A stretch of 57,660 nt of DNA from an uncultured virus (IMG/VR IMGVR_UViG_3300024302_000003) (IMGVR_UViG_3300024302_000003), one strand, 5' to 3'; shown: positions 4,983 to 35,700, counted from the stretch's first letter. Notes: a model not told the origin generated them from the letters alone. A program made the numbers and translations.

Positions 4983-5325
4983 TAACCTACTCCTCGATAA
5001 AATTCTAACAGAAGTTGCTGATGCTATTAGCACTGTTCGGGATGAGCTTGATAGCATTCAAGACGAGCTAAAAGACGCAGTACATGAAACAGAAACTATC
5101 CCCTGCCCAATATGTGATATCTCTGCAGATGAAATTATACAGACACCGGCAGGCGAGAAGATGTACGATATAGGGGACACAGGGCATATCCAATCCTTTG
5201 ATGGATATACCTGGCATGTACAGATAGAGGATACGAGTAAAACAACAAAAATACTGGAATTATCGCGCCGTGATGCTAAGATGCTTGCTAAGCAACTAAC
5301 GCTTGCTTTAGCAGAAAGTGACTGA
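4966..5325 (+). CDS. Hypothetical protein (coiled coil plus CPIC)
   Basis: 119-aa ORF overlapping its neighbours. Confidence 0.65.
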   Translation: MTNVNNNLLLDKILTEVADAISTVRDELDSIQDELKDAVHETETIPCPICDISADEIIQTPAGEKMYDIGDTGHIQSFDGYTWHVQIEDTSKTTKILELSRRDAKMLAKQLTLALAESD

Positions 5326-5647
5326 TTTCGATACTAGAGACGAACTGTATAAAAGACAAGATAGGGAAGAGGAACTTAAACGAGTTTCCTTCCCTGTCAC
5401 AGAATATAATATGAACGATACAATAAAAATACATGTACCCAGCTCTTGCACGCAGTGCGAGGCTATCCAAGAACTAATAACCTTCTGTCTTAATAACAAA
5501 GATCGATGGGGGGATTCAGAAGAATCTTTCCGTCACATATCTTGGGCAGTAGACAAATCAAAGGAGTTCCTCACGCATGCTGAGGAAACTTTTAAACAAG
5601 CTCAACCAAGAATAATAGATGTCAAGTACTGGACAACAGATAGATAA
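5318..5647 (+). CDS. Hypothetical protein
   Basis: GTG start overlapping the upstream gene end; CTQC. Confidence 0.6.
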   Translation: MTDFDTRDELYKRQDREEELKRVSFPVTEYNMNDTIKIHVPSSCTQCEAIQELITFCLNNKDRWGDSEESFRHISWAVDKSKEFLTHAEETFKQAQPRIIDVKYWTTDR

Positions 5648-7120: not shown

Positions 7121-7149
7121 AGGGGGTATAAACGTATACCCCCTTTTTA
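7121..7149 (+). terminator. Intrinsic terminator
   Basis: agggggtata-aacg-tataccccct followed by tttt. Confidence 0.8.
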
Positions 7150-11746: not shown

Positions 11747-11848
11747 TTACTTGGGGCTTCCCTTTCCCGCCGACTTATCAGCAACACGTTGTTGATGTTT
11801 TTTGTAAGTGATACTTGCATATTTCTCTATATAAAGATGCAAACTCAT
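11747..11848 (-). CDS. 33-aa ORF coupled to the giant gene; possible -1 extension to 11664
   Basis: ATGA overlap at 11845-11848; MSLHLYIEKYASITYKKHQQRVADKSAGKGSPK. Confidence 0.4.
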   Translation of the reverse strand: MSLHLYIEKYASITYKKHQQRVADKSAGKGSPK

Positions 11849-20800: not shown

Positions 20801-23800
20801 TCATCTATAAGCTCAACTTGCGGCGAAGATGTTACGTACAAAGCGCTCTCTACTAAAGTAGAATATGTGTGCGTTTCGCCATTGATACTCCATTTGGTTT
20901 CTATGTATAGATCACCCCAGCCATCGAACGCCCAATCATTATCCTCTATTTTGAATGTAGCATATAGACGCGCATCACTAGATGCTGCCAAGTATGTTAA
21001 ATCAGTTCCAAAGCCTTTATTGAAAGAAGCTGTGATGTAAGAGCTTGAATCGGTACTGTATAAACGAATAGTAGGTTCCTCATAACCCAGGGGGATAATA
21101 TCGGCTGTAGCTCTATTAAGATTACCCAGTAAGTTTTTGCCAGAAATGCGTATAACATGATCTTTCGTAGAGTTTAATTGTTTTGGTTGTATATCCCAAT
21201 AAGTTGTAGCAGTAGTATCTTCTAAATATTCGTACTGATAAAGCGTATCCACTGAAGGAGTGGGTGCATCAGAGCCAGTATAATTTTGTGCATCTAAATT
21301 AATTATTTGTAAGTTAAGTGTTTCTAGCTCAGAAGCTGCGATACTATCACTACTTTCTAAGCCTGGATACATATAATCCATACGCTCAACTGTGAAGTAA
21401 GCATAGGTTGTATCTGGTAAGTCTAGGGGACTGAATGAGCTAAGACGTAGGTGAGCCTCTTGCCATTCCGTATTATCATATAAGCCAGTAAGTGCAGTTT
21501 GACTTTTTAGGTATCTAACAAAAGAATCATTTTCGGTCCTAAAGAGCTGGTTTTGCTCTAACGTACTTATATCGGATGTAGTAGACAGAACAGCTCCACT
21601 ACCTTCATCTAAATATACATTACCGTAAAAACTAAAGTATGAGTCAAAGGCAGTTTGATTGTTGTCTTCGTTGAACTTATTGAAAAGATCTGGGTGAGCC
21701 AAGAAATACTTGCCACTTATGCGTCTACCTAAATAATGACTTGATTGCTCAGAGAAAATATGCGACATCTTCTCTGTATCCTGATCATAATACTTAGCAA
21801 ATTCTAATTGCTTTGACCAGTAAATAGTCTCATGGTTGACAGTTCTTGGATTAGCCCATTGTTCCTGTGTAACCCCATCAGTATAGTGTTTAACAGAAGG
21901 TGCTAGTTTGGGCGCAGGTAATAGCTCTGTTATTGAATCTTCTTTGCCGAAACTCTTTTCCGAGACAGAAGTTTTTCTATTTTGTATGGTAATACCAGCA
22001 TTGGTAAAACCATGTCCACCCGTATTCTTTGTGAATATTAAACCTACTTGTTTCTTATTAGGTAATATTTTTTTGATGTGTTTTTCTAACTGTACATGCA
22101 AAGCAATATAATCCAGGCCATTATGCTTCTCGGTAGAAACGCTAAAAGAAAAAGGAACGATAACTATGGTATCGGGGAAGAAAGCGCTTTTTATAGCATA
22201 AGGCACGGCTAAAGCTGCCTTTACTATATTTTTCCTTTCTTTGGTTAGGCGTAAAGATATAACAGGCTTAGCTGACGTTATATCTAAAGTTTTGTTTAAG
22301 TCAGAAATGTAATTAACTGAAAGTGATGTGCTGCCTATGTCAAGACTATACAGCTCAGGAGAGACAAAAACGTATTGCCTATCATCTAATACACCTACAC
22401 ACACTTTATCTTCTTCTACAAAACCTGCAGTTTTTAATCTATCAATAGAGAAGGATATAAAACCACCGTGGAGTTGATAATCTAATATTAAAGCAGTAGT
22501 GCCTTTCTTTGGATCGAATATCCATACTTCTTTAATATTGGAAGTGGCTACCGGCAAGCCTCTTAAGATATTCTGCTTGTCCTCACTTATAACTTTTGAT
22601 TTCAAATGCATACTAGATGCAAAACGAATTTCAGGTTTTTTACCTGTTCTAGTTATATAATAATTATGAGGGTTTTTGTACAACAAGCGTTTATTATCTT
22701 GCTTATAAATATAACCTATCTCCGCAAAGCCACTTTCATTCGTAAAGGCTGGCTTGTATTTTAGAGTAAGCGGTATCTTATGTTTTATATTTTTCTTAAG
22801 CTTAATCTTGCCATGAACATTAGGCTTCAAGATATCGCCCGCTTCTGTAACAGCCTCTATAGTATTTTTTTGTATAAATTTAACCGCATTGAGTCCTATA
22901 ACATATCCACCAGGAATGCTTTCTTTTGAACCCCATAGGTTTCCGTTAATAAATGAGTCATCTAGCGTGCTATTACCTTTCTGAACGCCGTAAGGGATCG
23001 TGACAGGGATAGCTTCCGAGCGTAAAGTATTCTGTGTCTCTAATAAGTAGATTTCACCTTCTTTTAATGTACGGTAGCTTGTTATATTAAAGCTAAAAGC
23101 AGCCCTATCACAGACATTAAAGAGTTTATCATTTGCGCCATCTGGTTGTTGCGTTAACTCAGCAACTAACTCATTAGAGACCTCAGTGCTATCAGAGGAT
23201 GTGTACAGCCAGCCTTTATAAAGATAGTCGTGATTAAAGGTATCTCCCCAGCGCGCACTATCTGTGCTTATAGTTTTATCTGTATATATACTCTTTTGAT
23301 ATAAACCCTCCGTTAAAGCAGAGAAACCTTTTCCACCAGGAGCAGCAGAAGTTACTTGTACGTGAAATTGGTTAGCATGCTTATTTTGCTGGGGAAGCGC
23401 TGAATCTTCCTTAGAAAATAAGGTTAAACTATCTATATAAGCAACCTTAGCTTGTAAGCCATTACCTACTGTAGTTACGCCAAAGTGAGTAGGAGTTGTA
23501 CCAGGGTTATGATTGAACACCAGAGGCATGACTGTCTCTACAGCGTTATCTGGCGATATAATATTAGATGTGCTGTCAAAAGAAGCATTTATCTCATTAC
23601 CTTCAATTACATCTCTAACAGAGCCTACAGGTCCCCTAATGATAGTAGATATAGGAGAATCGATTCTCGTAAAACTAACATTGTTTTTTATAGCTCTTAT
23701 GCTTACCTTAGGCTTACCAATGAGATTGGTTTTAGTTATAGCATTCTGACCTCTCACATAATCATTACTAAACAAACCCCAAGGCACATTAGACACGCCT

Positions 23801-26800
23801 GGGACAGCAAAGCCTGCATCAATGGACTCTTCTGGGCCTAAGCCCCATTGAGTCATTCCATATGAACCAATAGGCTCAAATTCGGTACCTACTATCTCGT
23901 CTGATATAGAAAGAGAAGCTTGATCTATTGCATAGTAATATGTGAAAGAAGAAGTATGAAGGAGGTTATGGCAATTAATATGCGCAACTCCCCCTTTAGA
24001 TGAGGAGGTATGTGTGTACGCGCTTGCTGTATTAAACGCATCAGCGATCGAATCATATCCATCAGCTATGTATACTAAAGCCCCTTTTGAATCAAACAAA
24101 TCCGTACGGTGTGTAGCTACTGCATTCGCAAAAGTAAAGTCTATGCCATTGTAAACGATATCATCTGCTTCTGTGTTGGTTGTATTTTTAACTAAACCTG
24201 TGCTAGTAAACCAACCGTCAGATGTTGGTTGTGCTGTTCCTGGGTGTATTGCTAAGATGCTCGGATCAGCTGTATTTAGCTCTGTTAAGCCTGTATATGT
24301 ATAAGCGAGCTCTGTCGAAAAAGAGTCAAAAGAAACAGTAAGCGACCCAGCAGACATCCCAGTTAAGGAATGCATTAAACAATATACGCGTTGATTAAAT
24401 GTAGATGCAGTAGTGTAATCGCCATCAGAATATCTTAAATACACTTTAGAGTTATCTGTGATGGTTGTAGTATTGGCTCCTTGTAGAACTGTAATAGGTG
24501 TTAAAGACTGTGTGGTATGAATATCGCCTTCGATATCAATACTTATCGTATCACCTTTACTTATCATCTGTCCCGATACACTCTTCGTAGCACTGATAGT
24601 AGTGCTAAGAATAATCGAAGCAGTATGAAGAGAAAGAGTCTCCCAATCACAGCCGTAATCTGTAGATACGACAGCATATAAGTCTTGAGGTGAGCTTGAA
24701 TCATAAATACCTGCAACGTCTATATGGAATCGCTCATGTCCATTACTTGAACGGAGGACCTCATCAGTATATGGTACGTGGCCAACCAAATCTTTTGAAA
24801 CTTTATTGTAAAAGGAGACACCATTTACACATGATTCCCATTTCTCTAAACCAGCTTGTGTATGTGTTTTATTCTCAGAAGAAAAGCCAGTACCATTTAT
24901 CTCCATATAACGATCACCATATGGCGTTAAGCCTATAATTTGAGGTTCTCTACCTATCATTACTGATTGGGTCGTATATTCTTGTGTAATCGGATAAGGC
25001 GTTTCAATAACTACATCAGCTACACCATGCCATCTTTGCTTGTAATCTTTAATGTGTTGTTCATCTACTAAGCGCCACTCTTGTACATTTCTTTCAATAT
25101 CCTTTAGGTTGTCATCAGGGAAAGCTTCTCCAATTAGCTCCCCTGTTGCTGTATACACAAAAGAAGGGTTAGCTGCGTGACCACCATCACTGAAATCTGT
25201 GGTACAGGTAAAGTCTGCCCTTTTACCTTTTGTCCATTGGAACAAAGAGTTTCTACTAACTGGCTGTATAGGCGTTGTATTGCTAGTGGATAGCTTAAGA
25301 TTCTTAGCTATTACGTATTGCTTGTATGTACCTTTGAAATCAACGTTAGGCGTAGTGTTATGTAAGAATAAAACATCTACTGTTTCTAGCCCTGCAGTGT
25401 CTCCCGTTAGTTTAACTGTCCCATCTATATGAAATAAACCCTTTTGGCTTCTTAGTGAACTGTTGATTAAATCTATATAACCAACTATGTTATTAGATGT
25501 AAAAGAAGATTTACCTTGTACTGGTAAAGCTAAGGGGTTGTTTGGTATTGTGCCAGGCTTAAAGAGTAAAATACTAACCGAACCATCCTGAGAGGCCTTA
25601 CTAACTGAATTAAAGGAAAGCGTAGTGATACCTTCTTTTTGCAATAACCCGTTTCTGACTGTGGCACCAGCCAAAACATTACGTTGGATTGCTGGTTCTT
25701 CTATAGCTATAAATGCGTCTGAATTTTCAAGAAACTGTCCATTTTTTAAGAGCGAAACCCTTAAAGCTACACGCTTTCCTGATTTAATAAAAGAGGAAAG
25801 TAACTGAGACGGTTCAAGATTAAAGGTGAGCCTGCTTGAATTTATAATATGTATATCATCTGTGTTTAAAATCTCTGTTTGATATGCATTAGACTCTAAA
25901 GCGCCTTTAGCCGTTACATACATAAGGTCAGTTCTAATCTGATCAAACTTAGGTAACTTGTTATCTAAAAAGTTTGAGCCTTTTAATGTGATATCTTCAA
26001 AGAATGAGCGTGTATCTAAAGCGCTTACGTTTAGTATGTTAGAGGTTTTATTAACTTCGAGATACATATCAGGCGAAGCGTAATAAATATATTCACCTGT
26101 TTTGAAGTCTGTTCCGCTAAAGCCTATATATAGCGAACCAGAACCACGAAATGAGCTAATAAACGAATTAAATTCGGTAGTATACTTGAACTTATAAATA
26201 CGCTCATCAGTACTAACTTGCTCATACGGTATAGTGCTCGTGGCTATATTGCTATCAAAGATGCTAGAAACATCCCCTTTACCCTTGAATGCGTATGCTA
26301 CTATTTGCGGATTAGTTATGTTTGCTATATTCTTAGCTTTTAACCTAAAGCTATTCCCAGTAGAGTCTTGCATTAAATCAGTAACACGTAAAGCACCATA
26401 TAAAGGTATAGAGGTGATCCCCTTATTGAAGGTAATAGATACCTTAGATACCTTGTTGTAGGACACCTTATATAAGCCTTCTTTAGTGGAGCCAAACTTT
26501 ATATTGTATGCTGGTATTGATATCGTTTGCTTTACTTTACGCTCTATATCATACTTACGAAGAGCTAATGCTTTACCATATAAGCTTAATGAAGCCGCAT
26601 TCGTGGAAGAAGGAGAAAACGCTAAAGGACTATATGAATACGTATCCAGCAACTTGTTTTCAATATTTACTAAGGGTAAAGTCTTGTCCTGCACGCCTGT
26701 GTACCCCATAACACCTAATGTAGTAGCTTCCCTAATACCGCCATAAAGAAAATTCTTACCTCTTTGCGTCGTAGCCTGCTCGATCTTAATGTTGATAGCA

Positions 26801-27291
26801 CCTTTTAAAATTTCTATTCCTTTATCCCGATAAGTAAATGTTAGTATAACTGGAAGGGTAATTGTTTCGCCGGCGAGTTCTGCGTGCTTTAAAAATATTA
26901 GTGTAGATAGCTTTTCCTTTAACTTAATATGGAATACTTTAGACACATCAAATGTGTAATCTTTCTTCTTATGTCCTTGGTTCACTTCTACCAGATTATC
27001 AAACTCTACTACGCCAAGACTATCTCCTACCTTGAGCATTTTTTGCTTAGATCTTTTCTTGTAAGGTTTATTGGATATAAGGGGGTTAACAGTTTCATCT
27101 AAAGTAATAGTAGCACTCTTTACAGCTGTTTCATATATACCTCCCTGTATCTCATTAGGATTTAACGCTAATTTTCTAGATACTAATCTTATATTAATTG
27201 TATCATTTTTGAAACCCCCGAATGCTGGGGACCAAACTAGAGGAGGTGTGTCTCGAAAGATACCTTTCTTTGCCTTATTGGGAATAGCCAT
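11845..27291 (-). CDS. 5148-aa giant virion surface/fibre-like protein with IPT-like, CBM-like, ~8 Big_5/SbsA Ig-like and LamG-like domains
   Basis: Repeated DTTPPTVxSTxPxDG...F(D/S/N)ExxD...ITDxAGNxL...W(T/S)FTT units; LLQNGAFE and LLRNPNFD CBM-like starts; FTVAAW...FKGCIDEVAY LamG-like end. Confidence 0.85.
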   Translation of the reverse strand: MAIPNKAKKGIFRDTPPLVWSPAFGGFKNDTINIRLVSRKLALNPNEIQGGIYETAVKSATITLDETVNPLISNKPYKKRSKQKMLKVGDSLGVVEFDNLVEVNQGHKKKDYTFDVSKVFHIKLKEKLSTLIFLKHAELAGETITLPVILTFTYRDKGIEILKGAINIKIEQATTQRGKNFLYGGIREATTLGVMGYTGVQDKTLPLVNIENKLLDTYSYSPLAFSPSSTNAASLSLYGKALALRKYDIERKVKQTISIPAYNIKFGSTKEGLYKVSYNKVSKVSITFNKGITSIPLYGALRVTDLMQDSTGNSFRLKAKNIANITNPQIVAYAFKGKGDVSSIFDSNIATSTIPYEQVSTDERIYKFKYTTEFNSFISSFRGSGSLYIGFSGTDFKTGEYIYYASPDMYLEVNKTSNILNVSALDTRSFFEDITLKGSNFLDNKLPKFDQIRTDLMYVTAKGALESNAYQTEILNTDDIHIINSSRLTFNLEPSQLLSSFIKSGKRVALRVSLLKNGQFLENSDAFIAIEEPAIQRNVLAGATVRNGLLQKEGITTLSFNSVSKASQDGSVSILLFKPGTIPNNPLALPVQGKSSFTSNNIVGYIDLINSSLRSQKGLFHIDGTVKLTGDTAGLETVDVLFLHNTTPNVDFKGTYKQYVIAKNLKLSTSNTTPIQPVSRNSLFQWTKGKRADFTCTTDFSDGGHAANPSFVYTATGELIGEAFPDDNLKDIERNVQEWRLVDEQHIKDYKQRWHGVADVVIETPYPITQEYTTQSVMIGREPQIIGLTPYGDRYMEINGTGFSSENKTHTQAGLEKWESCVNGVSFYNKVSKDLVGHVPYTDEVLRSSNGHERFHIDVAGIYDSSSPQDLYAVVSTDYGCDWETLSLHTASIILSTTISATKSVSGQMISKGDTISIDIEGDIHTTQSLTPITVLQGANTTTITDNSKVYLRYSDGDYTTASTFNQRVYCLMHSLTGMSAGSLTVSFDSFSTELAYTYTGLTELNTADPSILAIHPGTAQPTSDGWFTSTGLVKNTTNTEADDIVYNGIDFTFANAVATHRTDLFDSKGALVYIADGYDSIADAFNTASAYTHTSSSKGGVAHINCHNLLHTSSFTYYYAIDQASLSISDEIVGTEFEPIGSYGMTQWGLGPEESIDAGFAVPGVSNVPWGLFSNDYVRGQNAITKTNLIGKPKVSIRAIKNNVSFTRIDSPISTIIRGPVGSVRDVIEGNEINASFDSTSNIISPDNAVETVMPLVFNHNPGTTPTHFGVTTVGNGLQAKVAYIDSLTLFSKEDSALPQQNKHANQFHVQVTSAAPGGKGFSALTEGLYQKSIYTDKTISTDSARWGDTFNHDYLYKGWLYTSSDSTEVSNELVAELTQQPDGANDKLFNVCDRAAFSFNITSYRTLKEGEIYLLETQNTLRSEAIPVTIPYGVQKGNSTLDDSFINGNLWGSKESIPGGYVIGLNAVKFIQKNTIEAVTEAGDILKPNVHGKIKLKKNIKHKIPLTLKYKPAFTNESGFAEIGYIYKQDNKRLLYKNPHNYYITRTGKKPEIRFASSMHLKSKVISEDKQNILRGLPVATSNIKEVWIFDPKKGTTALILDYQLHGGFISFSIDRLKTAGFVEEDKVCVGVLDDRQYVFVSPELYSLDIGSTSLSVNYISDLNKTLDITSAKPVISLRLTKERKNIVKAALAVPYAIKSAFFPDTIVIVPFSFSVSTEKHNGLDYIALHVQLEKHIKKILPNKKQVGLIFTKNTGGHGFTNAGITIQNRKTSVSEKSFGKEDSITELLPAPKLAPSVKHYTDGVTQEQWANPRTVNHETIYWSKQLEFAKYYDQDTEKMSHIFSEQSSHYLGRRISGKYFLAHPDLFNKFNEDNNQTAFDSYFSFYGNVYLDEGSGAVLSTTSDISTLEQNQLFRTENDSFVRYLKSQTALTGLYDNTEWQEAHLRLSSFSPLDLPDTTYAYFTVERMDYMYPGLESSDSIAASELETLNLQIINLDAQNYTGSDAPTPSVDTLYQYEYLEDTTATTYWDIQPKQLNSTKDHVIRISGKNLLGNLNRATADIIPLGYEEPTIRLYSTDSSSYITASFNKGFGTDLTYLAASSDARLYATFKIEDNDWAFDGWGDLYIETKWSINGETHTYSTLVESALYVTSSPQVELIDERIQTCVHDSTTFSYNTFNFGTIAHTEAVAPSGTDTTLLPGVTLKIAETSMSFTESISAYVYRIDNSEIYSDKLFVDPILAEEKEFSGVMFSKDLTSATPLIDWAAFELPDLSGTSLTITSSLNLPEYTQYAKKLSEKRFDYGLESSITTSYTVNDLTSTLSTERGLASYRTRALSFAHYDMPRIISVLGTDKNNIVNLDQGILSGEAFLAIMCEYNNNSVSKLGDIQGINLSFGTEGVSSINIGFGEGTYGTLTVLNDGMYKTIKFYPNNDFSSLLNGFRTGGWMDISLIVGHVYNNARVTTTDYRALRIAWTPWDIEGTSGTSINAAPSTDAVMYRMRIMEDYNTNELRIGWSGHFGTQTYEVSHQEALCDVGLEDSAADWWVFAATVGYSQEGYTGNGMIKLYGAREKDLVANLDNARDPAALVDNSTIVRETFRGMQLLGEYDVGPQNHMGFISNEEYNIPDPENSEEILEATVSNFRFQVGRSPHPNHSRDMMGNYSATAMELLTASYVDADISDLVILPKTYSSHEDVTNFAFTPKRRSWETYGNAGITMPNLIQDASFEWLRLSTGVTHPFDGGWYTSDTEATVSNSIAFADNKARLILPPEAGAGTSVSQDFILKKSSTYKLSFDHISFNTADTNKTAVYISPYMTIEGRIASDSINVDAGDAPIYYNFNTYRWDTVVSNATVYYGPIHKWWFNNEALLFNALDADIRASITIGMIQSQGGYTGNGVLAIDNVSVTPMYGQRRAIQNSNLTAFTNDPSIEVWRWSLGDGASVGFIPTTAGSNTTMERPMSGYAVCTLPEALAADPNVDKPFIAQDLEAYTLEPGCDYALSFKAWSSSSDGFVTFTLENNRTNEYLQADGSWGIAWDAIEKDLNPNTYTTVSDVVGAVIRSQVNYTYEHIFNTRDSKVSDSYTLTIGNRAKDSDVDRPAVLLDDIQLYRYNQPQNSFESAGLGDNIIISGEGGLALPHDSSWQFNKKYSAETIFCIKNTFRDDSLIGTIATNANADIAATVLDSRLQGDSEPYVELLNIGHGNSSKGISIWVEGVEADGLFSNKLFASIPRGANKIQFSFDAALDTDGWYWVGLSKDSDILASCSLYRWNGSKDIQAWEELEVQVVGIGDSNYSATGENLLRNPNFDANQPDEHEAFHWVFGPTLGGEGRGHVILNTTTLISTAHLPVHGDLPLMHQVLVNPTTLTATNALTAEITFSVDSSTIVDGETCFILAIQGNEGITGFHEVKYDAATMAYPQECVYNAPIFHTGSLNLNKEYNATVFAVLLKVDHIDTGDQIKDYNSALVDGDEVTVTSVSLAAQEKTMPFLVATKKENVNHALANGSRFSFMIESVGNGMTTPTAPYSNYFTILEEPGEAPETFNFDITYNSSGHFFDFELKNASATDYGRTFTIRTEIVDTNPSYRLMDVNGNKLEKYEYKIRIANAAPAVASVIHTRPVNNAVDVNPAEELMIYVDHLLNVKDVNLTTVYIEDAASVKVDAVVTYYASIDAIGITPTAPLVDNTAYTLVMDSVWDFSGAKLPTQNWDFTTGTYAAPFQSLLQNGAFELPVAAPWSITNQGTVMFDAAKQSNIAVCPIDTQYDTVIAYAAGSHPRHTLTKGRLYMVNFDLKVTTSMAEGDILFFIEYGTEFYPYTVTYKNAYSTWTNVSFPLPSYATDGESKLVIRQRVKDSVPPYNTVRESDLVTGDEIRLDNIRIDFGASTQGPPVIMERTATIDAPIADPCFIELNESIIQASEYVLTKDFDMVVQDGGSVVTGALSYDDTTKRLAFTPDQLFSYGTTYNIRLNYVSGSIMNKFFVPLEPQILYFNTEQSQGDTTAPTVESTYPSDGATFVYINSIVYCEFDEAMDTGLLDGTTFTLTNTTTGFPVPASFSWNAAQNRATLTPSSDLTLDHDYIATLDASITDLAGNLLDGGEYTWTFDTLASNVAPYITSVTPPDGSRDVALDTDVIVVFSEHVNGVDTNSLDVREPGGTKPAQVLVYDSNTFTATITFNADLDEDYLYYVEATAALITDNEGAPLVGQLQTFFVTEKINTPPVLDSTWPTDGATDIAETVTIRGTFNEAIDPASATTNNFLLEDSSGTPITGSVGIYAQNNALVYFVPDVALTNDEEYTATLTTGITDLEGAPLANAEVWSFTITSNSPDTTPPTVDSTSPLSGDIDIARRDTLVEVTFSEPIDRNTIDQYSFEILDSALTPLGGAYSFTTNDTVVVFTPASYSLDPLETFTVTLSTDIADIAGNTLAAPYSWSFTTADVSPPTVVSTNPADTDIDIPIGTSITAIFDEDLDAATVTGTSFTLETGGNPVAGSVVFNHNTLEARFIPESYLSNSTLYTATLTTAITNLDGDNLGADEVWTFTTVAAGGGDVTPPEVTGTFPFNTAVNVERTIAITATFDEDLSAASVDDDSFLVEVNGTPVTGVIVYDPITYTATFTPKSLLSASSIYVVTLTTNITDVAGNSLVEYTWVFTTNSTSIGLPSPIPAQPISIGSKNKTFFKFDGMYTTSSEGGYMPNESGKFIWRFDNPNYCNNTGQGKAKNTVIEGSGDLTLPTAFFDEDSLWGKYSLRIPREYMDGTPAAYIEGGQEIAEVDWTNLTTLDLASSFVCLDGSESTHRHTKFTVAAWTKLDQYKSSPYGDSNTIIACSHYKFPTSAAESAAAYYDDWHSYDYAGDWGSKKYFGFKKGDTADQEDAGITGFAFYNNHYSDGSDESYLPELKVNIWAPNSTLENTAETVMGVPVGIKQGATLRLISQGVSNEQHITHSANEWWLTLNSFNIEGGKIENYTLRIPESAVREALDNNDATIFDLEHGTAGKQYGAYGRYSSFNPQNMATRLGGTWIGSFDISGAYIDATYTEINTEVHSAPLAVGSEVTGDNYFKGCIDEVAYMPDVFLDHTTVGDWLRQSGLGGLETKRPHGSHYVTEIGATRVNGFALRNEEGALIEGLASEESQTNINFRFDQEGNMGTDDARRMGR

Positions 27292-27350: not shown

Positions 27351-27397
27351 GCACTAAAAAATAGGTACTTTTATAGGTATAAATAAGTATCAGATAA
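27351..27397 (+). promoter_or_regulatory. 47-bp promoter-bearing direct repeat, copy 1 (CTAAA-N17-GGTATAAA)
   Basis: Identical to 28241-28287. Confidence 0.85.
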
Positions 27398-27438
27398 TTT
27401 CATCTGACAACACTTGTACTTATAAGGAGGTACAAAAA

Positions 27439-27621
27439 ATGGATACTACTGCTACTACTACTGCTACTACTCTTCGTCGTGTGGATTCAATTAAGGAGTC
27501 TGCGAAACTCGGTGGCTACGTTGCCATCACCGTGCTCACATACTTGGGCCTCGTCAACGGGACGTGCCGTCTGGTTAAGTGGTGTGAGAAAAAGATCAAG
27601 AGTGTGCCTTCAAAGGCCTAA
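27439..27621 (+). CDS. Small single-TM protein
   Basis: AAGGAGG SD; own promoter motif and terminator. Confidence 0.75.
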   Translation: MDTTATTTATTLRRVDSIKESAKLGGYVAITVLTYLGLVNGTCRLVKWCEKKIKSVPSKA

Positions 27622-27626
27622 GAAAA

Positions 27627-27663
27627 AGAAGCCCAACATTATATGTTGGGCTTCTATTTTTTT
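27627..27663 (+). terminator. Intrinsic terminator
   Basis: 13-bp perfect stem agaagcccaacat/atgttgggcttct followed by a T-run. Confidence 0.85.
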
Positions 27664-27676
27664 AAATACCTCTAGA

Positions 27677-27684
27677 GGTATAAA
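27677..27684 (+). promoter_or_regulatory. GGTATAAA -10-like element upstream of the pistol ribozyme
   Basis: Ends 7 nt before P1; the -35 element is not well conserved. Confidence 0.6.
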
Positions 27685-27691
27685 AAAGATA

Positions 27692-27748
27692 ACTCGTCTG
27701 AGCGAGTATAAACAGATCTTAAGCTCAGAGCGTTCCGAAAGGAGGTGA
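27692..27748 (+). ncRNA. Pistol self-cleaving ribozyme
   Basis: P1 ACUCG/CGAGU; loop UCUGAG forms a 6-bp pseudoknot with CUCAGA; AUAAACAG linker; UUAAG; GCG; P3 UUCC-GAAA-GGAG; G/U cleavage site at 27745/27746; P2 only about 2 bp. Confidence 0.85.
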
Positions 27749-27923
27749 AACCGTGCATATGTAACATATGTAAGTATGTATATTACTGGATGAAGGTAAA
27801 AGGTAAATTTAGATCCCTATGGGGGGAAGCTAAATAAAACTACTCCTGCAAGGAGATAGTTGGGTCAGGTGGGTAAGATAACTAACCCCAACGAAACAGG
27901 ATGATTCATCTGCCTGTTTTTTT
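27746..27923 (+). ncRNA. Putative structured small RNA released by pistol cleavage
   Basis: No sizeable ORF; hairpins at about 27754-72, 27807-35, 27838-61 and 27859-92 plus a terminal terminator. Confidence 0.55.
27894..27923 (+). terminator. Intrinsic terminator
   Basis: aaacagg...cctgttt stem followed by a T-run. Confidence 0.7.
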
Positions 27924-27949
27924 CTTTAACCTTAAATAGGAGTAATCAA

Positions 27950-28171
27950 ATGACAGAAGTTCGTTTAGATACGTTGTCTTCCCCGCAACATAAATTTATT
28001 ATAGCCGCTATGAGTGCGGGATACGATGTATTCCATTACTCGGGTAGAGGTATGATGGGAGAAGAATGTCCCGCCATTCAGGTAGAAAATGTGGCGGATT
28101 TCGCCAGCCCAGTGCCTTACGAGTCTGATCAACTAGGGATGGGTTACGTTATTTACTGCCCGGGCAAATAA
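27950..28171 (+). CDS. Conserved-looking small phage protein (YSGRGMxGxxC)
   Basis: AGGAG SD; YSGRGMMGEECPAI...DQLGMGYVIY. Confidence 0.75.
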   Translation: MTEVRLDTLSSPQHKFIIAAMSAGYDVFHYSGRGMMGEECPAIQVENVADFASPVPYESDQLGMGYVIYCPGK

Positions 28172-28254
28172 TGCCTTTCTTTCTCATCTGCATACCAGCA
28201 GCATTAGCTGCTGCTCTTTATATAAGTGTAAGAGATAGGTGCACTAAAAAATAG
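28171..28254 (+). CDS. 27-aa hydrophobic peptide
   Basis: TAATG coupling; MPFFLICIPAALAAALYISVRDRCTKK. Confidence 0.4.
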   Translation: MPFFLICIPAALAAALYISVRDRCTKK

Positions 28255-28287
28255 GTACTTTTATAGGTATAAATAAGTATCAGATAA
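28241..28287 (+). promoter_or_regulatory. 47-bp promoter-bearing direct repeat, copy 2
   Basis: Identical to 27351-27397, 890 bp away. Confidence 0.85.
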
Positions 28288-28435
28288 AGGTTGCACAAGC
28301 AACATGCCTGTAAAGATTAGTGGTTACGTCAGCAATGCTTAATATTCCTGACAAGATTAAACATAATGCCTATGAATAGCGTTTGATAATCTAATGCTGT
28401 ACTCAGCATTGTTGGACATACTACTAATCTTTTTC
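28281..28435 (+). ncRNA. Putative rod-shaped small RNA (or 5' leader)
   Basis: 28312-28339 pairs with 28405-28432 including G-U pairs; inner stem agatt-aaac/gttt-aatct; U-run at the end; no ORF. Confidence 0.55.
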
Positions 28436-28463
28436 CCCTCGCCTCAAAGTAGTTTTTATTTTA

Positions 28464-29039
28464 ATGATGAAAGATCTTGATAGCTTTTTCATTAAAATTG
28501 AGGGAGATTCTCTCTCCTACTTTACCTCCTTTAGTAAAAAAAATCAAGAGTCTTGCCAGAGGGACTTAAAACCTCTGGCTCTTTTACCCTTTTCTTTTAA
28601 TAAAATGCAAACAGCACAATTAACAAAACGCGTTAATCATTTACTTGATAAATGCGAAAAAAATAGAACAGTAGGTGGCGAGAACATCTACTATTTAATT
28701 AAATCAGATTTCGAGGCCGAAGGGCTAGTAATGATGACGGTTTTAAATTTCATGACAAACGATACAGAAGCTTTAAATGTATTAGCGAATATAATAAACA
28801 TGCATCCTAACTTCGCTTATAAGCAGCTAATGCGAGGAGCTTTCGAGGAGTTAGACGATGATGAAATGCAGAGGCTGATGGATGAGCTAGGTATTTCCTA
28901 CGGCTCATATTGCGAGTGCCGCGATCAAGCCGTTAAGACATACTTTAATAGAAGACGGTTACTTATAGACCCTGATGTATACAAAGAGTTTAAACTGCAG
29001 AAGGATTTTAAACGTGATAAAGAACTAGCAGAAGCTTAG
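28464..29039 (+). CDS. Hypothetical protein
   Basis: 191-aa ORF followed by a terminator. Confidence 0.7.
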   Translation: MMKDLDSFFIKIEGDSLSYFTSFSKKNQESCQRDLKPLALLPFSFNKMQTAQLTKRVNHLLDKCEKNRTVGGENIYYLIKSDFEAEGLVMMTVLNFMTNDTEALNVLANIINMHPNFAYKQLMRGAFEELDDDEMQRLMDELGISYGSYCECRDQAVKTYFNRRRLLIDPDVYKEFKLQKDFKRDKELAEA

Positions 29040-29044
29040 TTCAC

Positions 29045-29077
29045 TAGGGAGAGGTTAATACTTCTCTCTATTTTTTT
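29045..29077 (+). terminator. Intrinsic terminator
   Basis: tagggagagg/cttctctcta stem followed by T7. Confidence 0.75.
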
Positions 29078-29102
29078 GCCTTTAAGTGGGTATAATACTT
29101 TA

Positions 29103-30932
29103 ATGATTACGCTTGAAAATGTAAAAGATAAAACCCTTGTTTTCGATATTGAAAGCGATGGACTCATACCCTCAATGACTAAGGTACATTGTATTGCTGT
29201 GGTATTAGAAAATGGCGAATCTGAGCTCTTCGGTCCTGATAGAATCGAAGAAGGTTTAGATATCGTAGCTAATGCTCATACTATAGTAGGACATAATATT
29301 ATTAATTTTGATATACCAGCTATTCAAAAGATTTATCCTGAGTGGAGGCCTAAGGGTCTTGTGAGAGATACTTTGATTATGGCTCGTGTAGAGCATAGTG
29401 ATGTATTTAATGAGGACGAAGAGGAAAGGCGTATTCCTTCTAAGTTATGGGGACGACACGGTTTAGAAGCATGGGGCCATCGTTTAGATGAGGCTAAAGG
29501 TGACTTTGGTAAAAATAGTGATTGGACTAATTACTCAGAAGAAATGGGTTTGTATTGCGTACAGGATACGATAGTTAATCTAAAGCTTTGGGAACACCTA
29601 AGGGATATACCGGAACAAGCTTGTCAGTTAGAGCATGCCTTTTTTAGGGTCTTGGAAAAACAAATGGCCCATGGGTGGCATTTCGATTGGGAGGCAGCCC
29701 AAGAACTACATCAAGTTTTATTGCGAAAGAAAAAGGATATTCAATATAACTTGGAGGAGAGCTTTCCTCCTATAGTAACTTATCTTAAAACGCCCGAATA
29801 TTGGTTAGACGATCAAGGCTTCTTCGATACTAGATATACTAACAAAGGCTCTGCTCCTAAGAGCATTAGAGGTAGTTTAAAACCAGGTCCTTTTAAAGCC
29901 AAGACAGCACCTTTTAATCCAGGTAGCCGAGATCAAGTAGCCGCTGTTTTAATGGCGAAATACAATTGGAAGCCTACTGAAAAAACAGCAACAGGTAAGC
30001 CTAAGATTGATGAGGAGACTCTTAAAGACTTAGATTATCCTGAAGTAGCTTTATTCAGAGAATACCTAATGATTACTAAACGTTTAGGGCAGTTAGCTGA
30101 TGGCGCAAAAGCATGGCTTAAGTCTGTAAAAGATGGGCGTATTTATGGCCGTATTAATCACAACGGTACAGTTACTGGAAGATGTAGCCATTCAAATCCA
30201 AACATGGGTCAAGTGCCTGCTATACGTGCTCCATATGGTAAAGAGTGCAGATCGCTCTTTGTTGTGCCTGAGGGTTATAAATTAATAGGTTGTGATGCCT
30301 CTGGCTTGGAGTTAAGGTGCTTAGCTCATTATACGTATAAATGGGATCAAGGTACTTATGTAAAAGAGGTATTGGGTGGAGACATTCATACAGCTAATCA
30401 AAAAGCAGCTGGTCTTGACACTAGAGACCAAGCTAAGACTTTTATCTATGCTCTTAATTATGGCGCAGGTGACGCCAAGATCGGTAGTATTATGGGAGGT
30501 ACTGCTGTTGATGGTAAAAAGATTAAAAAGAAATTCTTTGAAACTTTACCAGGCTTAAAGAAGCTTATGAAAGAAGTGGAAATTACTGTTAATCGTCGTG
30601 GATATATCCGTGGCTTAGATGGTAGGCCTTTGCCTATTAGAGCTATGCATGCTGCGCTTAATGTATTACTTCAATCAGCTGGTGCGGTAATCATGAAACA
30701 AGCTACTGTTTTAATGGACGCCGAATTCACCAAACGAGGCTGGACACCTAAAGAGGTACAACAAGTAGGGCATATACATGATGAAGTACAGATACAAGCT
30801 AGGGAAGATCTTGCCGATGAGGTAGGACGTATAGCTGTGAAATGCATAGAAGATACTACTGATATATTAGGCTTAGATTGCCCTATGACAGGTGAGTATA
30901 AGGTAGGCAGTAATTGGGCAGATACGCATTAA
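29103..30932 (+). CDS. polA: T7 gp5-like family A DNA polymerase with 3'-5' exonuclease
   Basis: FDIESDG (ExoI), GHNIINFD (ExoII), YCVQD (ExoIII), DASGLELR (motif A), RDQAKTFIYA (B), HIHDEVQ (C); ATG 29103 is 6 nt after TATAAT. Confidence 0.95.
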   Translation: MITLENVKDKTLVFDIESDGLIPSMTKVHCIAVVLENGESELFGPDRIEEGLDIVANAHTIVGHNIINFDIPAIQKIYPEWRPKGLVRDTLIMARVEHSDVFNEDEEERRIPSKLWGRHGLEAWGHRLDEAKGDFGKNSDWTNYSEEMGLYCVQDTIVNLKLWEHLRDIPEQACQLEHAFFRVLEKQMAHGWHFDWEAAQELHQVLLRKKKDIQYNLEESFPPIVTYLKTPEYWLDDQGFFDTRYTNKGSAPKSIRGSLKPGPFKAKTAPFNPGSRDQVAAVLMAKYNWKPTEKTATGKPKIDEETLKDLDYPEVALFREYLMITKRLGQLADGAKAWLKSVKDGRIYGRINHNGTVTGRCSHSNPNMGQVPAIRAPYGKECRSLFVVPEGYKLIGCDASGLELRCLAHYTYKWDQGTYVKEVLGGDIHTANQKAAGLDTRDQAKTFIYALNYGAGDAKIGSIMGGTAVDGKKIKKKFFETLPGLKKLMKEVEITVNRRGYIRGLDGRPLPIRAMHAALNVLLQSAGAVIMKQATVLMDAEFTKRGWTPKEVQQVGHIHDEVQIQAREDLADEVGRIAVKCIEDTTDILGLDCPMTGEYKVGSNWADTH

Positions 30933-30957
30933 AAAAAATACATATACTAGGTATAAA
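30929..30957 (+). promoter_or_regulatory. Promoter-like motif TTAAA-N16-GGTATAAA
   Basis: Motif copy followed by a hairpin at 30960-30985. Confidence 0.7.
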
Positions 30958-31006
30958 ATAGTATCAGGCTCTTCTGTCTGATACTTTTCCTTTTAGGAGA
31001 CACAAC

Positions 31007-31369
31007 ATGAAATGTAAATTTAAGGGCTGCAGTAAAGCAGCCAAGACACGAGGGTTGTGTAGTTCCCACTACACAGCTATTCACCAAGCTTTAAAGAAGG
31101 GTACCTTCGAGGTGACCCTTGCCGAGGCTGCTGAAGGCAGGGAGCTGCTGAGTTTGTTAGCCGATGCGGAGCTTCATACAGAAGCCACCCTCTTATCAGA
31201 GGGGAACACTATTCCCATTACGTCTATCAAGATGGCGGAAGCGGTAGGGCTGGTGAACCCACCTATTCCTGCCAATAAAAGGTATAAACGCCGCAAGCGC
31301 ACTAAGCTGGAAATACAGCTTATTAACACCTTTGCAAAGGTAGGTGGGGTAGTTAACATCAAGCGTTAA
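31007..31369 (+). CDS. Protein with N-terminal C-x4-C-x9-C-x2-H zinc finger, likely DNA-binding
   Basis: MKCKFKGCSKAAKTRGLCSSHY; AGGAG SD; basic C-terminus. Confidence 0.75.
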   Translation: MKCKFKGCSKAAKTRGLCSSHYTAIHQALKKGTFEVTLAEAAEGRELLSLLADAELHTEATLLSEGNTIPITSIKMAEAVGLVNPPIPANKRYKRRKRTKLEIQLINTFAKVGGVVNIKR

Positions 31370-31382
31370 CAGAGGCTCCTTG

Positions 31383-31416
31383 AGAGAGATTGCATTTTAT
31401 GTGGCCTCTCTTTTTT
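31383..31416 (+). terminator. Intrinsic terminator
   Basis: agagag...ctctct stem followed by a T-run. Confidence 0.65.
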
Positions 31417-31417
31417 G

Positions 31418-31446
31418 CTAAAAAATACAGTTTTACTAGGTATAAA
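31418..31446 (+). promoter_or_regulatory. Promoter-like motif CTAAA-N16-GGTATAAA
   Basis: Motif copy directly after a terminator. Confidence 0.7.
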
Positions 31447-31450
31447 TTAA

Positions 31451-31609
31451 TACTCAGAAATGAGTAGAAATTTCATTAACTTACAAATACTAGTTTGGTA
31501 AGGTAATGGCTGTTAATTTAAGGTATTCTCCTTCCTAGTTAAATAGGTAACCTTTTAACAAAGTTGATCGCTTTGATAAATTACACACATTATATTGAAA
31601 TTTCTTTTT
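31451..31609 (+). ncRNA. Putative multi-branched small RNA
   Basis: 5' tactca-GAAA-tgagta hairpin; 10-bp closing helix 31466-75/31596-605 followed by a U-run; internal hairpins; only very short ORFs. Confidence 0.5.
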
Positions 31610-31610
31610 G

Positions 31611-31639
31611 CTAAAAAAGACAGCTTTACTAGGCATAAA
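31611..31639 (+). promoter_or_regulatory. Promoter-like motif CTAAA-N16-GGCATAAA
   Basis: Motif copy. Confidence 0.7.
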
Positions 31640-31684
31640 AGAATGTAAGCAAAATGTTTACGTACATTTAACAAAGGAGTTAAC

Positions 31685-31828
31685 ATGAAAGAGTCCGCCC
31701 CCCAACATATCAGTGCTCTTATCGAAAAGTATTTACCAAAGATGTTAAACGAGGATATATCAAAAACTAAAAAGAAAGAAGGTCAACAACTTCTTTTATT
31801 CCCTAAAAAGTCATCTAAGGAGAAATAA
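31685..31828 (+). CDS. 47-aa protein with a QLLLF clamp-binding-like motif
   Basis: AAGGAG SD; MKESAPQHISALIEKYLPKMLNEDISKTKKKEGQQLLLFPKKSSKEK. Confidence 0.65.
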   Translation: MKESAPQHISALIEKYLPKMLNEDISKTKKKEGQQLLLFPKKSSKEK

Positions 31829-31845
31829 TGACTAAAACAAGAAAC

Positions 31846-31910
31846 TACTTTTATAAATATATTAATCTTTTTACTTTTATAAATATATTAATCTTTTTAC
31901 TTTTATAAAT
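31846..31910. repeat. 2.5 x 26-bp AT-rich tandem repeat inside small ORF 31828-31908
   Basis: Unit tacttttataaatatattaatctttt. Confidence 0.9.
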
Positions 31911-31939
31911 TGGGTCCTTAATTGGACTCGGCTTTTTTG

Positions 31940-31969
31940 CTAAATTTAGATCTCTTTTTTTGGTATAAA
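31940..31969 (+). promoter_or_regulatory. Promoter-like motif CTAAA-N17-GGTATAAA
   Basis: Motif copy upstream of the lysozyme gene. Confidence 0.7.
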
Positions 31970-32773: not shown

Positions 32774-35700
32774 TTATTTGTACCCCTCCTCTTCTTCGTA
32801 GGGCAGTGACCCCATAGATCCGTTTGCTTCACATTCGAAAGAATAAGGAGATCCTCCTACAGCATAGCAATCCGCCTCGGTGATGGTATCGTCACAGTAT
32901 ACATAAGGAGTCCCCTTACCTATACAGCAATTGCAGTAGTTATCGTCGCCGTCTTGTGCCCATGCAGGTGGCTCTGGTGCAGCGGGCTCATTGTGAAAAT
33001 AAAGATCTATAGTTACAGGGTCGGCCTCGTTTGAGAAAATAATAACTGTTGGATACCAACCCTGTCTAAAGTTTGTGGCATCATTTAATGGTGCGGTTAT
33101 CTCCATAACCATATCTAAACTAGTACCTGCAGGAACTATATATGTACCGTCTACAGCTATCGGCGTAGCAGTGTTTATAGCTGTAACAGTAAACCTCTCG
33201 GTGGGTGTATTAGGCAGTTCTGTAATAATGCAGGGATAGAATGAAGTAGCAGCAGTGCTTCCATATACTTCTACATTATATCTATTGTCTACTATTCTTA
33301 GTGGGTAAGCTGCCCCAGTATTTTTCATTTTAATCGGTATATAATATGTTCCGCCATCACATACAGGGTCTTTAACCGTGCCAGCTGCATCTACTAAGCG
33401 CCCTGTAATGCGGTATTCGGAAGGACCCCCAATCTCGCGTCTTTTAATAACCACTGTACCAGTGTAATGGTGTAGATGAGTCGAAGGATTATTTATATCA
33501 AAATTATGGACCAGTGCATCAAAAATATCATGTAAGCGGAAAGCTTCTTTTGCCATATCCCCCGGACCCGTATTGTTGCCGGTGCGCAGTCTATAAATAC
33601 CGGGCCTATGAAAATTAATATGCCTTAAATCCGTATTAAGTAAAGCAGCATTGGTGTCTTCTAGATAAAACCACTGGATACCAGTAGCTGTAGCATCTAT
33701 CTTTGGCCTTATCATTGAATAAGATACAGGTAAGTCATAACTAGGCTCTCCGCTGTACCATGGTTCAGTATGTAAAGCTGTTTTAGTGTAATAAGTGTCT
33801 GATATCTCAGTACTGGATAAAAACCAAACAGCCTCATTATTTACGTTATTATGTATATCTATTGCTGTAAACTTGATAGTGTTTGCTATAGCCCATTCTA
33901 TGGGATTATTTTTTAATAGAATAATTCTATAATTAGGGTCTATAGGATCTTGGCTATACGTCCAACCAGGCTCTACATTAAAAATATTAAAGGCATCAGG
34001 GTCTGGTGTGTTTTCCGCATAGTAAGAGCCTTCGTTCTTTAAAACTAGCTTAGGGAAATCTGTAATAATACGCCCCCCTGCTACATATGTGTGCTGTGCG
34101 GAATTTAGTAAGTTACTATTATCTTGAGTGTATAAAGACGCATGAACACGGCTTCGTGCGTCACCAATAGGTATATGTTTAGGGATATAATCAGTCGTAA
34201 ATACAAGAGAAGCCCCAACTACCACTTCTACATGCCCATTTGGTAGGTAATCAGCCGCCGAAGGTGAGACAGCTACATTGTGAGATTCAGGGTCATATGA
34301 GTCTAAGTGTGCCCATATGGTTTTTTGTCCTGTATTGATTAAGGTTCCTGTCTGTATATTTGGAAAAGTATAGCCTAATCTAGCCGCCCCTGCGTTCCCT
34401 ATTGAAGGTACGTTAGTTATAGTAAAAGAATAACCAGCTGGCTTGACAAGGGTAGTGAAAGTAGTAATATGTTTACCCTCAGCGTTAAAGCCATGATCTA
34501 CCTCTGCCGTATAGTTCACCGAAGCTTCTGTGTCATTGGCGGGGGCGAGCCCTTCAAAGTCTATAACTTGTGTGGCGTCAGGTATTAGCGTACCTGAAAT
34601 GGGGGAAGAAGCAGCTACACCAAAATCTAGGCTATTTTGGCCTATTGTTATGTTATATGCAATATCTACATTGCCTATGTTTCTTAATGTATTAGTGGTA
34701 GTGATAACTGACTCAGGTTCCTCTCTAGTACCTCCAAAAGAAGGGTACTTCTCCCAAATAAGACTCTCGACCAAGGGCTCAATAGTAGCTTGTATGGTAA
34801 CAACACCTCGCTTATAACCCTCTTCTCCCGTAGTGCAGGTAATATTAACCCCCTCCAGCAGAGTCGTATTTTCTGCTGGAACAGTCAATCGAATTGTTAC
34901 GTCATGCGCAGAAGCGCCGTTTTCTAAGTCAGTAAAAGCCCCTCCACTAAGAATTGTAAGGTTTTGTGCGCTACTATCCAGGGTAACAGTACCCGACAAA
35001 GCCCCTCCGCCTGTATTTATAATAGAAAACGTTTTATCAACAGTACCTGCATTAGAGGCAATAGTGCCTAGATTAAATGTATCCTGAATAACACGTTTTG
35101 CTGTATCTTTTTTATGAGCTGCGCTCTTTGTAGGAGGATCAGTTTCCGCAACAGTGAAAGTATTTAAATCCGGACTGTGGATACTTAATACCGGACCCCA
35201 AACAGGATTAATTAAAAAAGGTACGTTGTCCGGGGATATAAAAGGACCATCGGCTGTTAGGTGGCCTGTTCCTACATTTATTATCTCAAACAAGCTAGTG
35301 GGTAAGGTATCCACGCTGTAATTGTTAATAGGCACAAAAGTAAATGTACGTGTATCAGATATATTTTCATCTGCTAAAGATATAGCAGCACTACCATTTA
35401 ATGTTAATTCGTTTTGTGTATCTACAATTGATATATCACCATACACATCTATGTTGCCCGCGTCACCTATACTATCATTATCAAATGTTATATCATCAGT
35501 AGCGTAGCTAAATGTGTTATCGCCTACTATGTTTTGCCTAAAATATTCATTCCCTAAACCTATAAAGGTATATCTGTCTATCGCTGAAGGACTTATATTA
35601 AGTATAGCTCTAGGATCAGTTGTAACTTCTCCGCCCCATGCTACAGTAAAATCAGCTAGATTTGTATCAGAGAGAATAGAGACATTGTAGATTTGCTGAT

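Follow-up and report, generated by a model that had tools for sequence, protein, structure and literature searches.

Pistol ribozymes have been known since 2015. Each has a short P1 hairpin, the loop of which forms a pseudoknot with the P2–P3 junction, and cleavage occurs by an internal phosphoester transfer that leaves a 2′,3′-cyclic phosphate and a 5′-hydroxyl (Harris et al. 2015, PMC4604425). In the same report, pistols are described as lying near phage genes. The portions of the literature covered by our search describe no biological role for them. Two other phage systems bear comparison with the locus described here. HDV-like theta ribozymes are found beside phage tRNAs and have been proposed to trim neighboring RNA (Kienbeck et al. 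2024, PMC10879173). The present locus is like theta ribozymes in that a small self-cleaving ribozyme is encoded in phage DNA and trimming of an adjoining functional RNA can be proposed, and it is unlike them in that the ribozyme belongs to another class and no tRNA is found within 60 kb. Promoter-early stem-loop (PeSL) cassettes, described in T4-type phages (Arbiol et al. 2010, PMC2839356), combine a repeated promoter with a stem-loop; we return to these below, once the promoter region has been described.

Here, we analyze a pistol ribozyme encoded by an uncultured marine virus. The window, meaning the whole stretch of DNA that was analyzed, is 57,660 nt long and corresponds to bases 766–58,425 of a 156,428-bp record rated 93% complete. 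All coordinates refer to the window unless the genome frame is stated. On balance, we think that the ribozyme trims the 5′ leader of the message of a small ORF, orf73, and that this leader also accumulates by itself as an RNA of 130–147 nt ending at 27892. The relevant features of the locus are as follows.

27439–27621: 60-codon ORF of the cassette that precedes the pistol, matching no family
27627–27655, both strands: strong two-way terminator hairpin closing the cassette of the 60-codon ORF (13-bp stem on both strands, −19.5 kcal/mol)
27666–27681: perfect 16-nt palindrome, ATACCTCT/AGAGGTAT, overlapping the −10-like motif (opposite-strand self-match 16/16)
27677–27684, + strand: GGTATAAA, a promoter −10-like motif 7 nt before the ribozyme, from which transcription would start at about 27690–27692
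27692–27750, + strand: pistol self-cleaving ribozyme (RF02679), with a predicted cut at G27745/U27746
27746–27892, + strand: RNA that the predicted cut would release, putatively with its 5′ end at 27746, leader of orf73
27806–27835, + strand: hairpin H2 of the leader (−9.2 kcal/mol; in both the MFE and the centroid structure)
27838–27862, + strand: hairpin H3 (−9.1 kcal/mol)
27859–27892, + strand: hairpin H4 (−8.4 kcal/mol), at whose 3′ base the abundant RNA stops
27894–27923, + strand: weak, leaky terminator or attenuator (5-bp stem, inner 2-bp stem, U7)
27950–28171, + strand: orf73, an orphan of 73 codons, the ATG of which is preceded at 5 nt by AGGAG
28196–28215, + strand: terminator-like hairpin closing the pistol–leader–orf73 unit (7-bp stem with five G-C pairs)
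28266–28273, + strand: GGTATAAA of the next cassette

This order of elements is reminiscent of RiboJ-type synthetic insulators, in which a promoter is followed by a self-cleaving ribozyme, a structured 5′ end and a gene, such that the cut strips promoter-proximal RNA and leaves a 5′-OH. Whereas RiboJ-type insulators were engineered from a hammerhead-type ribozyme, the same layout occurs here naturally, is built on a pistol, and includes a long leader that accumulates by itself. The locus can thus be viewed as a natural counterpart of the ribozyme insulators of synthetic biology.

The original prediction had read the pistol elements, in order, at 27692–27748, and had proposed a search with the Rfam pistol model as a check. 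That search gives a clear answer. RF02679 matches 27692–27750 on the + strand over the full length of the model (positions 1–68 of 68), scoring 60.2 bits as compared to a gathering score of 34.5, with E-values of 1.7e-8 in the window and 1.1e-11 in the genome. It is the sole Rfam family above threshold in the window and the sole pistol in the 156,428-bp record, and none of 14 control genomes yields a pistol match. Every element named earlier can be read from the sequence: P1 is ACUCG/CGAGU; the loop UCUGAG pairs with CUCAGA (27725–27730) at 6 of 6 positions to form the pseudoknot; the AAA linker, UUAAG and GCG are all in place; and P3, UUCC-GAAA-GGAG, is followed by the 2-nt GU junction G27745/U27746. 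Outside P2, all upper-case consensus letters are matched in the cmscan alignment to the Rfam consensus. The cut site was placed by alignment to the junction of the family, which is strictly 2 nt long and usually GU; 71 IMG/VR pistols were amenable to parsing, and 60 of these have GU there. Judged by its sequence, then, this is a genuine member of the known class, and self-cleavage is predicted.

The earlier estimate that P2 comprises only about 2 bp also proves accurate. C27718 pairs with G27747 and U27717 with A27748, followed by A·A and G·A, which leaves two canonical pairs in four model positions. Among 76 non-redundant IMG/VR pistols, P2 has three pairs in 52, two in 11, four in five and fewer in three (five were unparsed), and two members of this set, L050 and L051, show the same pattern of P2 pairs as the pistol described here. 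Hence, the P2 of this ribozyme falls in the low tail of the distribution yet is not disqualifying, because 11 of the 76 natural pistols likewise have two pairs. One might still argue, from the 2 of 4 pairs in P2 and from the shuffled promoter cassettes that line up in this region, that the ribozyme-like sequence is inactive or without relevance, being a passenger left to decay as cassettes were shuffled, and that the RNA ends near 27760 (see below) come from a host nuclease or from an unrecognized start site. The match speaks against this, as it is full-length, exceeds the threshold by 25 bits and retains P1, the pseudoknot of 6 bp, P3 and the conserved consensus letters, and we consider this reading very unlikely.

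The motif 7 nt before the ribozyme had been taken for a promoter, and its distribution in the genome fits this well. The genome contains 22 copies of the 8-mer GGTATAAA, of which 19 are on the + strand and 14 fall outside long ORFs, in just 9.4% of the genome (binomial 6e-10). All 14 of these intergenic copies are on the + strand, each ahead of a + strand ORF; the one at 7125 contributes to a hairpin of the terminator type. An A-tract precedes many of the copies, at variable spacing. A scan with the sigma-70 consensus returns no + strand site at 27650–27690, and the −35 region does not conform to sigma-70, both of which weigh against a promoter. Of the 12 other intergenic copies tested, 7 have a hairpin with an energy of −6 kcal/mol or lower that begins no more than 8 nt from the motif (27376, 30950, 31439 and 31962 in the window; 103447, 127252 and 154863 in the genome frame), and P1 of the pistol starts where these 5′ hairpins start. 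Since GGTATAAA is recurrent, strand-biased and intergenic, a promoter is plausible here, with the ribozyme at about +1. These patterns support the view that GGTATAAA acts as the −10 element of a phage promoter, transcripts of which would normally open with a 5′ hairpin.

Six copies of GGTATAAA lie within 27376–31962, before small ORFs, and flank the polymerase gene on both sides. Near-identical copies of the promoter/leader cassette are present at 27352–27446, at 28242–28287 and at ~127.2 kb (95 nt at 97.9%). This arrangement is like that of PeSL cassettes, in which small orphan genes around the polymerase gene are preceded by a repeated promoter that combines a stem-loop with A/T-rich sequence upstream, and the near-identical cassette copies recall the plastic region described for PeSL-bearing phages (PMC2839356). 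There is also a PeSL subclass in which the stem-loop lies over the −10 box (PMC2839356), and here the palindrome at 27666–27681 takes a similar position: the GGTAT of the motif is at the same time half of the palindrome, a point that weighs against the promoter reading. The palindrome is found at no other promoter copy in the genome; an operator is conceivable, as is a stem-loop of the PeSL type. Several differences are evident, however. The PeSL promoter is identical to the sigma-70 −35/−10 consensus, whereas no sigma-70 consensus is present here, and PeSLs are not described as including a ribozyme. PeSLs belong to T4-type phages (PMC2839356), while the DNA polymerase of this phage is of family A and no more than 45% identical to its nearest relatives, the enzymes of Roseobacter and Pelagibacter podophages; for this reason, the phage is not shown to be of the T4 type. 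A baseplate-wedge PHROG is matched as well.

The layout seen here is not the usual one for pistols. We compared it with the 76 non-redundant IMG/VR pistols, 60 of which have a clean GU junction. In 37 of the 76, a same-strand upstream frame of at least 60 codons has its stop within 10 nt of the first base of the ribozyme (−2 to +10), and in 18 of the 60 a ribosome site and ORF follow no more than 51 nt past the cut (among loci L004–L088). These counts indicate that the usual layout of a pistol is gene, pistol, gene on one message. By contrast, the upstream frame at the present locus ends 70 nt away, the next ORF is 204 nt off, and a strong terminator and a promoter motif intervene, a rarer layout. 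Two general rules were considered for the class and set aside. A terminator-like site before the next ORF occurs in only 4 of the 60 pistols, too few for pistol-then-terminator to be the general layout. In 13 of the 76, the hexamer TANNNT ends 5–7 nt upstream of the ribozyme, versus ~4 expected from other offsets, and no upstream motif is shared among the 15 pistols with TANNNT at offsets 4–8; as evidence that pistols generally sit at transcript starts, this is a weak hint at best.

The nearest relative in sequence comes from Gordonia phage GMA2, where a pistol missing from the annotation of the record (Rfam, 56.8 bits) shares 87.1% identity over 62 nt. This pistol is part of a tRNA array: tRNA-Trp ends 3 nt upstream of it, and tRNA-Gln follows at a distance of 127 nt.

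KR063281.1, 3001–3184: GMA2 pistol and the ORF-free stretch behind it, ending at tRNA-Gln

The ORF-free stretch of ~127 nt that follows the GMA2 pistol folds better than its shuffles (z −2.88; 1 of 200). The two loci are therefore alike in that ORF-free RNA follows the ribozyme, which gives a hint that the layout of pistol plus orphan folded RNA may recur. They are unlike in that the GMA2 pistol is embedded in a tRNA array and has no promoter motif, and the downstream RNAs share no sequence likeness. A tRNA link of the GMA2 kind can be dismissed here, as ARAGORN finds neither tRNA nor tmRNA in the window and the 86 IMG/VR pistol stretches contain no tRNAs; the only RNA content in the rest of the genome consists of five tRNAs, at 95–101 kb. 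The GMA2 record holds two further unannotated RNAs. Positions 2280–2691 match Rfam tmRNA (94.6 bits), covering the annotated ‘hypothetical protein’ Orf58 (2333–2464), and at 5315–5387 Rfam places another tRNA (60.5 bits), which extends over the beginning of Orf57.

We turn now to the RNA downstream of the cut. It had been called ORF-free, and indeed 27751–27949 contains no ORF of more than 30 codons; a 30-codon GTG frame starting at 27745 would be split by the predicted cut. It had also been described as a structured, multi-hairpin RNA, a claim that stands for the discrete hairpins H2, H3 and H4 and not for the fold as a whole. Compared to shuffled sequences, 27746–27925 gives a z of −1.41 (20 of 200 shuffles as good), 27746–27892 a z of −1.42 (18 of 200) and the opposite strand a z of −2.23. 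Within 27751–27923, no Rfam family is matched at E up to 10. The suggestion of a CsrA-type sponge finds no backing in the motif counts: GGA occurs 4 times in 178 nt versus 3.3 in shuffles, 44% of which reach 4, and ANGGA occurs once versus 1.1. A CsrA/RsmE-titrating sRNA of the CsrB/RsmZ type, which would carry numerous GGA motifs, chiefly in the loops of hairpins, is accordingly set aside. Complementarity between the downstream RNA and the phage genome nowhere exceeds 12 nt.

A terminator at the end of this RNA had been thought to close the unit, and here the data point the other way. The hairpin at 27894–27923 has a predicted stability of just −5.0 kcal/mol, or −8.4 kcal/mol with its A/U extension, as compared to −19.5 kcal/mol for the terminator at 27627–27655; it is absent from the listing of a consensus terminator scan; and it is crossed by RNA contigs from all three of the metatranscriptome runs described next.

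Sea-water runs that contain the 3-kb stretch around the site come from 18 studies and comprise 14 DNA runs and 6 metatranscriptome runs; 6 of the 14 DNA rows are possibly the source of this assembly. We examined three RNA runs from three studies (X15, X16 and X17) and one DNA run (X9). The RNA data are assembled contigs, for which true starts, strand and level are not provable and shared ends amount to a weak hint. With this in mind, the left ends of the RNA contigs lie at 27762 (X15), 27765 (X16) and 27760 (X17), 14–19 nt past the predicted cut; as a pointer to Mg2+-dependent self-cleavage they are indirect, and there is no other. A DNA contig, X9#17 (27395–27851), crosses the site unchanged, and no run examined shows a sequence variant on the stretch. 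No RNA contig in X15, X16 or X17 covers 27559–27759, where an uncovered contig stretch proves nothing. In two of the three RNA runs (X16 and X17), the left end is directly preceded by loose letters, which we take to be Illumina adapter. The adapter-like letters have the same orientation at all three informative ends, as would presumably be seen for + strand RNA in libraries made by a dUTP-type method.

The 5′ ends of RNA are usually lost in the second-strand synthesis of library making, and to such loss we ascribe the offset of 14–19 nt; a nuclease cut near 27760 would look alike. Contig starts at 27760–27765, and not at 27746, are also what one would expect were the pistol inactive, as discussed above, but no −10-like hexamer could be placed for a transcription start near 27760. 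The contigs begin in a region (27759–27773) that contains two ATG-TAA start-stop pairs in a short direct repeat (CATATGTAA, twice). Two oddities of the assemblies have plain explanations. A joint in X17 that appears to go back 890 is an assembly join via a 47-nt promoter repeat, and the second cassette copy, located at 128,087 in the genome, accounts for a 1-nt gap at 27424 and for a loose end after 27446. RNA contigs of the ~127-kb cassette copy are present in X15 and X17.

The most abundant RNA is seen in X15, where a 131-nt contig spanning 27762–27892 has a depth of 704.6, versus 5.7–34.7 for the other X15 contigs on the stretch, and is ~35 times deeper than the read-through contig. In the X15 assembly graph, an adapter-like branch after 27892 has a depth of 140, while the branch that continues into the genome (X15#5, 27863–28287) has a depth of 20.2; most molecules in the X15 library thus end at 27892. 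This position is the 3′ foot of H4, immediately ahead of the weak terminator. Of the three RNA runs, one shows a discrete end there; in the others, X16#9 (27765–28524) and X17#13 (27760–28240) bridge both the weak terminator and orf73. Hence, the data support the existence, in natural sea-water libraries, of an RNA whose start lies shortly after the ribozyme and which, in one of the three runs, is very abundant.

What does this RNA belong to? The product of orf73 matches no Pfam or PHROG family, and its Atlas matches are all <0.9. In 27685–27949 there is neither a copy of GGTATAAA nor a sigma-70-like site that could serve orf73. Given its good ribosome site and the lack of a promoter motif of its own, orf73 appears to depend on read-through from upstream. 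The unit therefore consists of promoter, pistol, 200-nt leader, orf73 and terminator, and is not a closed sRNA gene: its internal terminator is weak, RNA contigs run into the promoterless orf73, and the abundant species ends at 27892. The original prediction of a self-contained non-coding RNA unit is in this respect half right, as RNA that starts just behind the ribozyme is found, whereas read-through into orf73 is seen in 3 of 3 runs.

The abundance of the short species does invite another interpretation, namely that the locus encodes a stand-alone, trans-acting phage sRNA of ~150–180 nt, such as a protein sponge, with read-through into orf73 being incidental. The species 27762–27892, so much deeper than read-through in that one run, and an ORF-free stretch with three discrete hairpins are both in keeping with this idea. 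They have to be set against the ribosome site of orf73, an ORF that would need the read-through; against the weakness of the terminator and an RNA end that falls at 27892 and not in the U-run; and against the chance-level GGA count, the absence of phage-genome complementarity beyond 12 nt, a fold with a z of only −1.4, and the lack of a homologue in the collections searched. All told, a stand-alone sRNA seems to us unlikely. A related and somewhat broader proposition, that the 130–147-nt RNA is a new functional phage sRNA, abundant in natural infections in the sea, and that it needs its ribozyme-made 5′-OH for stability or action, we regard as a tentative possibility which we are inclined to doubt. 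If true, 5′-end maturation of a non-coding RNA would become the first task in nature to be demonstrated for pistols.

The leader might alternatively respond to a signal, as a riboswitch-like element or a protein-dependent attenuator, in which case the pistol would merely give the sensor a clean 5′ end. Under such a scheme, either the fold of 27746–27892 would set passage through the terminator, or TACTCCT would mask the ribosome site of orf73. TACTCCT (27841–27847) lies in the 5′ strand of H3 and is the exact complement of AGGAGTA (27938–27944), the ribosome site of orf73; in H3, it is paired with a decoy, AGGAGA. It could serve to mask and unmask translation of orf73, or it could be due to chance, since a 7-nt complement within ~170 positions is expected by chance at roughly 1–5% (a rough estimate). 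A leader followed by a weak terminator and an ORF, with an abundant short leader RNA, resembles terminated riboswitch leaders, and the abundant short species and small read-through fraction in X15 conform to this pattern. Against a sensor of this sort, the leader matches no Rfam family, has no relatives that show a conserved aptamer, and does not have an unusually stable fold. We judge a signal-responsive leader to be quite unlikely.

We return, then, to the ribozyme-trimmed leader of an orf73 message. In the mechanism we propose, the locus is a small unit of the early type, with the GGTATAAA promoter at 27677, the pistol at about +1, the 200-nt leader, orf73 and the terminator at 28196. The pistol would fold during transcription and cut between G27745 and U27746, discarding a piece of ~55 nt that carries the 5′ triphosphate, while the remainder would keep a 5′ hydroxyl. 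The weak P2, with its two pairs, may let the product leave at once. The resulting 5′-OH RNA would be the leader of the orf73 message. Most copies would either stop at the weak terminator or be trimmed back from it to the foot of H4 at 27892, and these shortened copies would pile up as the RNA of 130–147 nt, while a minority would read into orf73. In this arrangement, the ribozyme would replace the plain 5′ hairpin found at the other promoters of the phage. Because the ribozyme stands in place of a promoter 5′ hairpin, its likely use is to define the 5′ end and shield it, or else to release the downstream fold from promoter-proximal sequence. The 5′-OH itself may also be of benefit.

Here, the layout of the genome predicts which RNA a pistol should make, and public sea-water RNA data contain such an RNA. 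The phage occurs in DNA and RNA runs of 18 studies. The purpose that pistols serve thereby becomes open to direct testing. The layout, along with the RNA found in situ, is a useful, testable lead, and not a new kind of system.

Relatives of the RNA and of the phage were sought in several ways. Against 50,697 phage records, blastn matches only the ribozyme itself, in GMA2, and blastn of 27751–27949 against all loci gathered gives nothing below E 0.4. There is no second copy of the downstream RNA in the genome of the phage, and an IUPAC pattern of H2 has 0 matches in IMG/VR. With orf73 as anchor, one spurious locus is returned, and no homologue is found among 5.8 billion proteins. With the DNA polymerase as anchor, 17 IMG/VR loci are recovered at 33–52% identity, none of which has an Rfam match, as well as 19 metagenome loci, one of them a 100% match across 7,854 nt and the others no more than 52% identical. 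A pattern search for the promoter cassette retrieves only another copy of the same phage. The relatives found are thus either identical copies or polymerase relatives of at most 52% that carry no pistol, and in the collections searched the downstream RNA has no cousins.

Finally, a few observations concern the neighborhood of the unit. The 60-codon ORF at 27439–27621 encodes a hydrophobic stretch that resembles a membrane segment, and its promoter and leader are duplicated at ~127.2 kb, before a different ORF. Additionally, the window contains two giant ORFs on the − strand. One, at 32774–42181, has 3,135 codons and matches no Pfam or PHROG family; the other, at 11845–27291, has 5,148 codons and includes seven Big_5 Ig-like repeats.
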